Shown here piece by piece: positions 14,389-49,245 of a stretch of DNA of 64,000 nucleotides. The stretch's first letter is position 1, and each line of letters begins with the position of its first letter. This stretch comes from a virus, in IMG/VR virus record IMGVR_UViG_3300009151_000031. One strand, given 5' to 3'. Below the pieces are notes generated by a model. The model searched no databases and was not told where the DNA came from. It was given only the letters and a program-made list of their open reading frames with translations. Position numbers and translations under genes: made by a program.

Positions 14389-16011
<1,623 letters not shown>

Positions 16012-16709: not shown

Positions 16710-16745
16710 GTTGACCCATAAATCCATTAAATGTATAATCAATAC

Positions 16746-17365: not shown

Positions 17366-17442
17366 AAACAACACCTAGATGTTGACCCTAAAATCCATTA
17401 AATGTATAATAGTTGTATTGTGTTAATAAAGAAGGAGCTAAA

Positions 17443-18486
17443 ATGACTGTATCTTTTGTGCGTATTAAATCTGGTGCTTATCGTACTACAGATGTTTCCG
17501 GCCAAGTGTTTCAGCTAGTTGAGCAATATAAGTTCACAGCTAAAGGTGGCTATGTTACTGTTAAGAATGGTGGCCGGTTTCCTGGCATGCCAGTTGACAT
17601 CCGTGTCAAAGTTGAAGGCATGAGCGATTACGATTTTGTAAGCGAAACTGAATTCGTTGAAGCAGGTAATACACCTGTTAAAGAAGCCGTTGCACTAGAA
17701 GTTGCGGCAGAATCTGATGAAGAAGTGATTGCACGTATTCGTCAGCGTTTTGAGATCTTGGATGAGATGACTACTGCCGCAACAAACGGCGACATCCGTG
17801 CCATGATTGTAAGTGGCCCTCCTGGTGTTGGTAAATCATTTGGTGTTGAGCGTATTGTTGAGAAGGCTTGTTTGTTTGATCAAATCTCAGGTAAGCGTCT
17901 CCGTGCAGAAGTCATTAAAGGCTCAACAAGTGCCTTGGGTTTGTATTGCCAACTGTACAAATACAGTGATGCCAACAGTATGCTAGTGTTTGATGACTGT
18001 GACTCAATTTTGCTTGATGACGTAAGTTTGAACTTGCTTAAAGGTGCCCTGGACTCAGGTAAGAAACGTAAGATTTCGTGGTTGTCAGATAGCCATATGT
18101 TGCGTCGTGAAGGCGTTCCAGATAGTTTTGAGTTTAAAGGAAGTGTGATTTTTATTACCAACCTTAAGTTTGATCAAATGAAATCGCAAAAGTTGCGTGA
18201 TCACTTGGATGCACTACAAAGCCGTTGTCACTATTTGGATTTGACTTTAGACACAATGCGTGACAAGGTCCTGCGTATTAAACAGATTGCCAGTGACGGT
18301 GGTTTGTTTGACGAATATGACTTTGAACAATGTGAGCAAGATGAACTCATTGAGTTCTTGGAAACTAACAAGAACAAGTTCCGTGAAATGAGCCTGCGTA
18401 TGGCAATCAAGATCGCGGATTTGAAGAAGAGCTTCCCACTCAAGTGGAAGGCTATGGCTCAAGTTACTTGCATGAAAACTGCATAA
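17443..18486 (+). CDS. AAA+/P-loop ATPase
   Basis: Walker A GPPGVGKS, Walker B VFDDCD, ALQSRC Arg-finger-like; SD AAGGAG before ATG 17443. Confidence 0.85.
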   Translation: MTVSFVRIKSGAYRTTDVSGQVFQLVEQYKFTAKGGYVTVKNGGRFPGMPVDIRVKVEGMSDYDFVSETEFVEAGNTPVKEAVALEVAAESDEEVIARIRQRFEILDEMTTAATNGDIRAMIVSGPPGVGKSFGVERIVEKACLFDQISGKRLRAEVIKGSTSALGLYCQLYKYSDANSMLVFDDCDSILLDDVSLNLLKGALDSGKKRKISWLSDSHMLRREGVPDSFEFKGSVIFITNLKFDQMKSQKLRDHLDALQSRCHYLDLTLDTMRDKVLRIKQIASDGGLFDEYDFEQCEQDELIEFLETNKNKFREMSLRMAIKIADLKKSFPLKWKAMAQVTCMKTA

Positions 18487-18547
18487 GTTTTATAGCCGAA
18501 AGGCTATACTACCATAGCTCTCTTTAGCTCCTGAGTTATGGTTTTCG

Positions 18548-18579
18548 ATCCCCGGGTTTAACTGCTCGGGGATTTTTTT
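18548..18579 (+). terminator. Rho-independent terminator
   Basis: ATCCCCGG...CTCGGGGAT followed by TTTTTT. Confidence 0.8.
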
Positions 18580-18615
18580 ATTTGCAATATCATTGAATGT
18601 ATGCTACAATAACAT

Positions 18616-19788
18616 ATGGCTCAATACACACATCAATACGTAGAAGACTACATCGAAATTATTGCTGGTTACAGAGAACCTAGTGGTAAAAGTAACTACA
18701 GTATCTTTACTGTGGGAGAAAGTCCACTTAGTCTGGCCAGGTACGATATGAAAGTTGTACCAAGTTTGGCTGAGCAAATAATAGCAGGCAAAGGATTCAC
18801 AGACAAACAGGCCGCGTTGGCTGTGTCCTTGATTATTAAATACGAAAGACAGTTAACTAAATTATTGGTTGATATTACGCCAGTCAGGACACCACAGTAT
18901 AGAATTCCTTTGCGAACAATTGACAGAGAAAGTCGAGTATGGGTAGAAGGTGATATTATCAATTTGAAGTTTCCTTACGATACCAAGCTAATTGATCTAG
19001 TAAGGACTGCCAGCAAGGAGAGCAAAGGTAACATACACTTTAACAGAGAACGACGTGTGCAAGAGTTATCCTTGACCGAATGGAACGTGAACTGGGTATA
19101 TACATTTGCTCAGGTTAACAATCTCACAATAGATCCTGGTCTAGAAGCAATAATGCAAACACTACTGGCGGCAGAAAATACTCCTTATGCAATTGAACTG
19201 ACATACAACAATGGTGTTTTATCCATTAGTAATGCCACAGACAGTTTAATAGAATATGTAAATAGTAATGTTGGGTTTGATGATTTACTCAAACTTATTG
19301 ATCATGCACCAATTCTTGGGTACACCGTAAACAGTACAATACGTGATACAGTTGTAGAGCAATGTGGGACACGTTTTTGGAGCCTGTGTGCTAACCGTGA
19401 ACTCAAAGTTGATCCGCAAACAAGTCATGGCCTGGTTAAAGACCTTGCTGACTACGCAGAGAAAACTAATCGTTTTCCTATATACGTTTATGAAGCTGAC
19501 TTGACTGATAGGTTGTTGAATGAATTTACAAAACACTTTCCTGACCAAGTTTTTAAATTAGGCAATCAAAAGACCATACCAGATGATCCAACAATTAAAG
19601 TAATTTACACAAATAAAATTCCACGTACACCGCTTAACGGTCGTATTCCGTTATTGGTTAGTAGTGCAGGTATGTTACATGGTGGCGACAGGCAGATATG
19701 GATTCAAACAGCCGAAAAGATTGTGTACTTTGCCAAAGACGTGTATACTAAGAACTCTAAAGGACCCGAAGTTTGCAAGCTAGACTAA
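18616..19788 (+). CDS. Hypothetical protein upstream of the UvsW-like helicase
   Basis: 390-aa ORF behind TTGCAA-17-TACAAT. Confidence 0.75.
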   Translation: MAQYTHQYVEDYIEIIAGYREPSGKSNYSIFTVGESPLSLARYDMKVVPSLAEQIIAGKGFTDKQAALAVSLIIKYERQLTKLLVDITPVRTPQYRIPLRTIDRESRVWVEGDIINLKFPYDTKLIDLVRTASKESKGNIHFNRERRVQELSLTEWNVNWVYTFAQVNNLTIDPGLEAIMQTLLAAENTPYAIELTYNNGVLSISNATDSLIEYVNSNVGFDDLLKLIDHAPILGYTVNSTIRDTVVEQCGTRFWSLCANRELKVDPQTSHGLVKDLADYAEKTNRFPIYVYEADLTDRLLNEFTKHFPDQVFKLGNQKTIPDDPTIKVIYTNKIPRTPLNGRIPLLVSSAGMLHGGDRQIWIQTAEKIVYFAKDVYTKNSKGPEVCKLD

Positions 19789-47618: not shown

Positions 47619-48223
47619 TGTTTTTTCAAGTTTTTGAGCGTATGAAAAGTCTTGCCGCTAAACACGGTGGCAAGACTTTTACTCCCAAGCAATTCACACA
47701 CCTACTGCGTATGCAATTTCGTGACCCACAGTTACGATTTACCACGGGACGAGATGATATGGTAGTTAGCAAAAATTTCCACATCCAAGGTCTATACAAT
47801 CCCGGCGATGACGAGGACGGCAAACCCTGTATCACTATCAGCCTGATGTTCAGTCCAAGATGCCGTCGAGTATCATTAAATGACTACAACTGGAACGAAA
47901 TGAGCTTCCATATTGCAGATACTGTTACGCACGAATACCTGCATCAGTATTATTGTCGCCAACGTGGATTTGAATTTGGTCGAGGATATCGAACAGATAA
48001 ACTTTTACAATACAGCGACACCATGAAAGATTACTTGGGGTGCGAGGACGAAATACTTGCTTACTCGTTTAACATAGCCAGCGAAATGGTAGTTTATAAA
48101 CGTCATATGGTCTTAACAAAAGTATACAGAATGTATCGCCGTTATTTTAGGCAAGATCGTAAAGTTATGCTACAATTAGAAAAACAAACGAATAAGTATA
48201 TTAAACGACTGGAGCTATCATGA
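47618..48223 (+). CDS. HExxH motif protein (possible zincin)
   Basis: VTHEYLHQ and downstream EDEILAY. Confidence 0.5.
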   Translation: MFFQVFERMKSLAAKHGGKTFTPKQFTHLLRMQFRDPQLRFTTGRDDMVVSKNFHIQGLYNPGDDEDGKPCITISLMFSPRCRRVSLNDYNWNEMSFHIADTVTHEYLHQYYCRQRGFEFGRGYRTDKLLQYSDTMKDYLGCEDEILAYSFNIASEMVVYKRHMVLTKVYRMYRRYFRQDRKVMLQLEKQTNKYIKRLELS

Positions 48224-48948: not shown

Positions 48949-48978
48949 ACTTGTATAGAAACTAAAAAGGAGCTGAAA

Positions 48979-49245
48979 TTGAACATTAGTACACTAGAAC
49001 AGTATGTAGAGCAAAAAAACAGTTGGGGCAAGATCTTTGATAAGAAGCCTTTGAGTTTGCTTAATGCCAAAGATCGTCAGGCTATTGCTAACAGCATTGA
49101 CTCTGACATGAGTCCCGAAAATTTAACTTGTGATGGTGAACTGCCACGTGCAGAAGTTAGCCGTCGTATCAAGTTCCTGAGCCGTTGTGCTGAAGAATTG
49201 CTCAGCATTGATTCAACTGTAACCTTTTACGAAATGGGAGTTTAA
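48979..49245 (+). CDS. Hypothetical early protein
   Basis: Probable TTG start at 48979 behind AAGGAG; SPENLTCDGE. Confidence 0.65.
   Translation: MNISTLEQYVEQKNSWGKIFDKKPLSLLNAKDRQAIANSIDSDMSPENLTCDGELPRAEVSRRIKFLSRCAEELLSIDSTVTFYEMGV

Follow-up and report, generated by a model that had tools for sequence, protein, structure and literature searches.

The AAA+ ATPase gene of the 64-kb stretch of DNA analysed here (hereafter, the window) is followed by a hairpin whose loop is complementary to the ribosome-binding site (RBS) of the same gene. What the relatives of this phage have conserved is the design of the element rather than its sequence. Collectively, its structure, complementarity and co-evolution strongly support base pairing between loop and RBS, which is very likely on genetic evidence, in the absence of biochemistry. 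Control of ATPase translation through this pairing is inferred.

The 3′ element and its target

The window has no nucleotide match among GenBank phages, and its source is inferred from sequence alone to be an uncultured lytic giant phage. IMG/VR contains hundreds of relatives, including one 357-kb record rated complete. The ATPase belongs to phrog_1250, whose function is unknown; it shares 40% identity with proteins of PA5oct-like Pseudomonas giant phages and about 33% with a homologue in the T4-like Acinetobacter phage Acj9, the product of a gene annotated nrdC.10. Its gene is inferred, on the same basis, to be the first of an early transcription unit, with a leader of about 26 nt as counted from the promoter at 17382–17410. 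The features of this unit are as follows.

17382–17410, + strand: sigma-70-type early promoter of the ATPase unit, TTGACC-17-TATAAT, with 11/12 consensus matches
17433–17442, + strand: ATPase RBS, AGGAGCTAAA, the target of the loop, abutting the ATG at 17443
17443–18486, + strand: AAA+ ATPase gene, 347 aa, phrog_1250
18491–18508, + strand: hairpin 1, TATAGCC-GAAA-GGCTATA, with a 7-bp stem and a GAAA loop (RNA fold)
18511–18542, + strand: hairpin 2, the anti-RBS hairpin, with a 10-bp stem and a 12-nt loop (RNA fold)
18547–18579, + strand: intrinsic terminator, with an 11-bp G+C-rich stem, a 6-nt loop and 7 T (fold and terminator scan)

The three hairpins 3′ of the ATPase stop codon are supported by both the sequence and the RNA fold. 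The 3′ region folds at −41.2 kcal/mol (z = −6.8), and none of 200 shuffles was equally stable. The stem of hairpin 2, ACCATAGCTC/GAGTTATGGT, contains one G-U pair among its 10 bp and closes the loop TCTTTAGCTCCT (12 nt, 18521–18532), while the terminator is made up of a stem-loop at 18547–18574 and a T-run at 18573–18579. A promoter scan revealed no promoter-like site on the + strand between 17410 and 18581; the element thus has no promoter of its own, and either processing or action in cis would be needed. A tRNA search gave no match at the element. No Rfam family reached its gathering threshold, the best score being 23.9 bits against a threshold of 54, and the matches obtained are merely a generic resemblance to a hairpin followed by a terminator.

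Loop bases 18523–18532 (TTTAGCTCCT) are the exact reverse complement of the RBS at 17433–17442. This 10-mer occurs once per strand in the window, where about 0.01–0.05 such matches are expected by chance (a rough estimate). In the complete 357-kb relative, the 9-mer AGGAGCTAA is likewise present once per strand, i.e., as RBS and as loop. The word GGAGCTA is retained in most ATPase orthologues and is found in only 2 of the 26 GGAG-type RBSs on the + strand of the window; it is gene-specific and not the general RBS of the phage. The loops before 12 terminator-like sites in the window give runs of 3–7 nt with upstream RBSs, against 10 nt for the anti-RBS loop. Indeed, no other operon of the window has the same design, and no other terminator-proximal loop there matches an upstream RBS over more than 7 nt.

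The loop–RBS duplex is predicted at −13.5 kcal/mol. Opening costs +3.6 kcal/mol for the 10-nt target and 0.0 for the loop, consistent with a weakly structured leader and a fully open loop, which leaves a net energy of about −9.9 kcal/mol as compared with −8.0 kcal/mol for the E. coli-type SD:anti-SD duplex at the ATPase site. This estimate ignores the strain of a 10-bp helix inside a 12-nt loop.

The first-pass annotation, made without database searches, had described three hairpins after the ATPase stop, and these were confirmed in every detail of coordinates, sequence and fold. The perfect reverse complementarity it had claimed between 18523–18532 and 17433–17442 was correct to the base. Two further matches on its list, AGGAGCT at 48968–48974 and GGAGCTA before 48220 (at 48211–48217), were also verified.

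Some features of the surrounding region are worth recording in their own right. A near-identical 29-nt promoter box, TTGACCC(A/T)(A/T)AAATCCATTAAATGTATA(A/C)T, is present at 16711, 16970, 17382, 48623 and 48920, corresponding to five early promoters, and its conservation is far above the needs of promoter function alone. It may reflect copied promoter modules or an extra binding site within the spacer. Shortly before the early promoter cluster, at 14392–16011, the phage encodes a GroEL-type chaperonin (PF00118, E = 2.8e-76). On the other side, the ORF that follows the terminator (18616–19788) has no family match. Its ATG is located 5 nt past the −10 hexamer TACAAT (region 18582–18618) and lacks a Shine-Dalgarno (SD) sequence, and its mRNA may therefore be leaderless. 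In many relatives, the −35 TTGAC of the promoter that follows begins right where the T-run of the terminator ends (TTTTTTTGACTT).

Conservation and covariation among relatives

Relatives were taken from IMG/VR, in which 232 loci yielded 150 non-redundant ATPase genes with 63–91% protein identity. The scan took in all perfect hairpins downstream of the ATPase gene, about 80–270 per locus. In at least 84 of the 150 loci, the longest Watson-Crick run between a loop and the contig's own ATPase RBS, 8–11 nt in length, belongs to a hairpin with a T-run after it, and the best runs obtained by the same scan in loci without the element are 5–8 nt. A looser search adds further loci (L036, L118, L145, L183, L215, L228, L197 and L163). 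For about a third of the relatives, the element was not found within the 3–6 kb available.

The stems of these hairpins are unrelated in sequence between lineages and carry compensatory changes; at least 14 different stems occur, such as CCATAGCTC, CTGTGATTC, CGTGGC, ATATCGCCC, CCCGGGC and AATTGCCTTC. In the window's own geometry class, double-sided changes are present in 8 of 10 pairs of the hairpin 2 stem, and 92% of its stem cells are paired, as opposed to 22–39% when the partners are slid. RNAalifold recovers hairpin 2 together with the terminator. Hairpin 1, with compensatory stem changes, is found in 9 of 14 close relatives and is missing in the rest, and it is therefore regarded as an accessory part. 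The position of the anti-RBS hairpin is also informative. In 44 of the 84 loci, extra small genes separate it from the ATPase stop by more than 200 nt and as much as 4 kb; even with 0.2–4 kb of such genes behind the ATPase, it is still placed directly before the first terminator of the unit. Since the hairpin precedes the first terminator and is not tied to the stop codon, it marks the 3′ end of the transcript that has the ATPase as its first cistron.

Cultured relatives at 33–40% protein identity (PA5oct and Acj9) show no convincing element. In the cultured Pseudomonas phage PA5oct, for which RNA-seq data exist, the homologous ATPase is annotated thioredoxin and is followed by the hairpin AAAGTAGCA-AGGA-TGCTACTTT (L233:4150-4200, MK797984.1), the 3′ arm of which is complementary to 7 nt (AGTAGCA) of the RBS spacer of this homologue. 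The match is short and lies inside a stem, and it may be due to chance.

A second conserved structured motif, CCCCTGCCGTGTGCGTAAC-NGG...CCN-GTTTCGATAA, is present in other clades 8–15 nt past the ATPase stop (L087:3358-3425, L076:4022-4090, L081:7030-7095, L176, L050, L102, L150 and L180). Its stem covaries (AACAGG/CCTGTT, AACGGG/CCCGTT and AACCGG/CCGGTT) around a variable insert, and it has no Rfam match. L071 and L081/L082 contain this motif plus an anti-RBS hairpin further downstream.

A lack of conserved loop–RBS complementarity in orthologues had been named by the first-pass annotation among the results that would refute its reading. This comparison was run; the complementarity proved to be conserved, with loop and RBS co-varying through many different sequence pairs. 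A total of 31 different paired words were obtained, including GGAGCTA, GGAGCCAACCA, GGAGTTGGC, GGAGCTGAC, GGAGCAA and AGGAGCTAA/G. The RBS GGAGCCAACCA is accompanied by the loop TGGTTGGCTCC throughout a whole clade, and AAGGAGCCA by TGGCTCCTT in a second, separate clade. Further RBSs and their loops are GGAGTTGGC with GCCAACTCC, GAGTTAGT with ACTAACTC, AGGAGCTGAC with GTCAGCTCCT, CGGAGCAA with TTGCTCCG, TGGAGCAACA with TGTTGCTCCA, and GGAGCGAAA with TTTCGCTCC. In L231 (GGGCTAGTAA with TTACTAGCCC), one base has been lost at matching positions of the RBS and the loop. In the L118 clade, an RBS with GGAGCCA occurs together with a TGGCTCC loop. On the ATPase tree, the types of paired word arise in separate clades.

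At the second base after GGAG, among independent pairs in which both RBS and loop differ, the loop differs in the same way in 3.4–4.9 and in the opposite way in 0–0.1. Sign tests at single positions rest on few independent pairs, with p values of 0.06–0.25 each. Leaving the RBS flanks out of the definition of the element, and taking simply the first hairpin that combines a CTCC-containing loop with a T-run, does not remove the signal. A swap test gave the same picture from both sides: with CTA-type RBSs, the runs are 9.2 for CTA-type loops and 5.5 for CCA-type loops, and with CCA-type RBSs they are 6.0 and 9.9, respectively. The orientation of the match was also compared with three non-complementary controls over 143 loci. 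Runs of at least 9 were found for the complement in 66 loci, against 3, 11 and 4 in the controls, and runs of at least 10 in 31 loci, against 0, 1 and 0. That the complementary sense alone is enriched favours RNA pairing over a DNA motif indifferent to orientation.

Two other explanations of the match can be weighed against these data. The first is an inverted repeat acting at the DNA level, as a site of recombination or of a dimeric DNA-binding protein, or simply a chance match. A lone 10-nt inverted repeat in 64 kb is, admittedly, not overwhelming by itself. However, the copy at the transcript end invariably lies within the loop of an RNA-type hairpin whose stem shows compensatory changes, and the other copy is always at the RBS. 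The spacing between the copies varies from 1 to 5 kb, and no inversion or excision is seen among about 230 loci, in which gene order and strand are identical; chance is excluded by recurrence with different words. This explanation is considered very unlikely. The second is a protein-binding RNA site, e.g., one acting on the adjacent terminator in the manner of boxB of the lambdoid nut sites, with an incidental match to the RBS. A conserved loop on a covarying stem beside a terminator is indeed the pattern expected of such a site. Yet it leaves unexplained both the loop changes that match the RBS in many lineages (CCAACC, TTGGC, CTGAC, CAA and the paired deletion) and the enrichment of the complementary sense only, and it is likewise considered very unlikely. 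Because the loop follows the gene-specific RBS bases beyond GGAG, the boxB-like site and the DNA inverted repeat were rejected as candidates, as was a mimic of the 16S tail.

The covariation is real but not strict. Over the seven bases after GGAG, nearest-pair covariation gave no signal: among the closest independent pairs that differ there, the own loop fits better in 9 and worse in 7, indicating that recent changes outside the 8–11 nt core are uncompensated. One clade, characterised by the loop TTTTGATAGCTCCTTTT, has kept its loop despite drift of the RBS bases that follow GGAGC; the pairing has shifted upstream and rests on AAAGGAGC(T).

Proposed mechanism and range of targets

In the proposed mechanism, the loop would pair with 8–11 nt of the ATPase RBS, comprising the SD bases and the spacer up to the start codon. 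The RBS would thereby be hidden from the 30S subunit, and less ATPase would be translated. The SD is always within the paired stretch, which in many cases extends as far as the start codon; the simplest outcome is therefore that 30S binding is blocked, and because loop and target come from one promoter, the result would be negative feedback. RNA–RNA pairing that blocks the ATPase RBS, with feedback from the 3′ end of the operon, is accordingly regarded as the likely function, with the reservation that repression is inferred and that there are no expression data. To this extent, the autoregulation from the 3′ end postulated by the first-pass annotation, through pairing of the loop with the RBS of its own gene, is supported.

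A rival reading accepts the pairing but makes it protective, the 5′ leader joined to the 3′ hairpin shielding the mRNA from decay that is either 5′-end-dependent or endonucleolytic, or from a phage nuclease that, like RegB of phage T4, cleaves at GGAG. ATPase output would then gain on balance, or the mRNA would be stored. The same covariation evidence fits any function that requires pairing, and the Bacillus subtilis hbs mRNA has a 5′/3′-UTR interaction controlling ribonuclease action (PMC5737220). Against this reading, the paired site always covers the SD bases and is therefore unusable for initiation while paired, and no nuclease site is known at the ATPase locus. Protection is considered unlikely.

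Returning to the block of translation, two versions of it can be envisaged. In the cis version, the finished mRNA would fold back onto its 5′ end, and initiation would be largely confined to the time before the 3′ end is transcribed. In the trans version, a stable 3′ piece consisting of the hairpins and the terminator would outlive the mRNA and act as a 3′-derived small RNA. The first-pass annotation had left this choice open, and the sequence does not decide it; the lack of a promoter of its own is compatible with both versions alike. Action mainly in trans, or in both ways, appears almost as probable as not, and action mainly in cis slightly less so. Outcomes other than these two versions are unlikely. 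Behind the seed come a U-rich linker and the terminator hairpin, features that might suit an Hfq-type small RNA, but dependence on Hfq and release by RNase E are inferred by analogy only.

A bolder reading, for which no more than possibility is claimed, is that the cis version serves as a completion timer. The RBS would be open only during transcription and would close once the 3′ hairpin is made, limiting each transcript to a brief and fixed burst of ATPase whose duration would be set by operon length (1–5 kb across phages). If true, this would be the first 5′–3′ end interaction of such a kind in a lytic phage, and its conservation would extend over a large group of uncultured giant phages from fresh water.

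When both strands were scanned for duplexes, two RBSs ranked at the top of all start sites, that of the ATPase (−15.5 kcal/mol) and that of a small early ORF (−15.6 kcal/mol), which is a possible second target.

48968–48977, + strand: RBS AGGAGCTGAA of a small early ORF with a TTG start at 48979; 10 pairs with the loop, including one G-U

No orthologue of this ORF was found in five large related records. Its leader (48949–48981; …cttgtatagaaactaaaaaggagctgaaaTTG) closely resembles the ATPase leaders of the relatives L033 and L037, and may represent a copied promoter-leader module that brought the target word along, rather than a conserved second target. In the window, the complementary word is present in only 2 of 14 strong promoter leaders, so that a general shut-off of early genes by a small RNA, also suggested by the first-pass annotation, is not supported there. 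An RBS tag common to all early genes was rejected for the window on the same count.

Relation to known systems

A literature search returned analogous bacterial systems and nothing on this element or on similar giant-phage RNAs. The element is thus real, conserved and, as far as could be found, without a published description; its inferred regulatory outcome would rest on a mechanism of known type, in this case with a new form and a new carrier. To date, self-control of a single gene by RNA from the 3′ end of its own transcript has been described in few bacterial cases, namely OppZ, CarZ and icaR. The hok mRNA is generally known as a further case. If repression is as inferred, the same logic now appears in lytic giant phages in many natural variants (at least 84 of 150 relatives). 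These variants form a ready-made series of compensatory mutations and provide unusually strong genetic evidence for a long-range RNA–RNA contact in organisms that cannot be cultured. The inferred feedback would also mark the ATPase as a protein whose dose is tightly controlled by the phage, and the element could potentially serve as a small, orthogonal and programmable feedback module in which loop and RBS are altered together.

The autoregulatory 3′UTR-derived small RNAs OppZ and CarZ of Vibrio cholerae (Hoyos et al. 2020, PMC7398697) are comparable in position and target. Like them, the phage element lies at the 3′ end of its operon, shares the operon's intrinsic terminator and is complementary to the translation-initiation region of its own operon; in OppZ and CarZ, this pairing results in post-transcriptional negative feedback. 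For these RNAs, release by RNase E and the need for Hfq have been demonstrated, and pairing of OppZ also triggers Rho-dependent termination (PMC7398697). There is no sequence or structural homology between OppZ or CarZ and the phage element. The latter differs further in that it presents its seed in a hairpin loop, targets the first gene of the unit and is carried by a lytic giant phage.

The icaR mRNA of Staphylococcus aureus contains a 5′UTR–3′UTR interaction (Ruiz de los Mozos et al. 2013, PMC3868564), and the phage element shares its key feature, an anti-SD motif in the 3′ UTR that is complementary to the SD region of its own mRNA. In icaR, a UCCCCUG motif within a long 3′ UTR makes the pairing, which prevents the initiation complex from forming, and RNase III cuts the duplex (PMC3868564). 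Unlike that of icaR, the pairing of the phage element extends 4–7 nt beyond the SD into gene-specific bases, and it is for this reason private to one gene and its covariation visible.

Two other well-known systems show parts of the same architecture. In Gram-positive bacteria, the S. aureus small RNAs RNAIII and the Rsa RNAs use C-rich hairpin loops to pair with SD sequences. The presentation of the seed in a hairpin loop that masks an SD is common to these RNAs and the phage element, but RNAIII and the Rsa RNAs are encoded by separate genes and have many targets. In the hok mRNA, the fold-back element (fbi) pairs the 3′ end with the 5′ end and keeps the full-length mRNA untranslated; hok, however, belongs to a toxin-antitoxin system, and its mRNA is activated by 3′ processing. 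In contrast to all of these, the phage element forms the end of an ordinary early operon, and its match is to a single gene.
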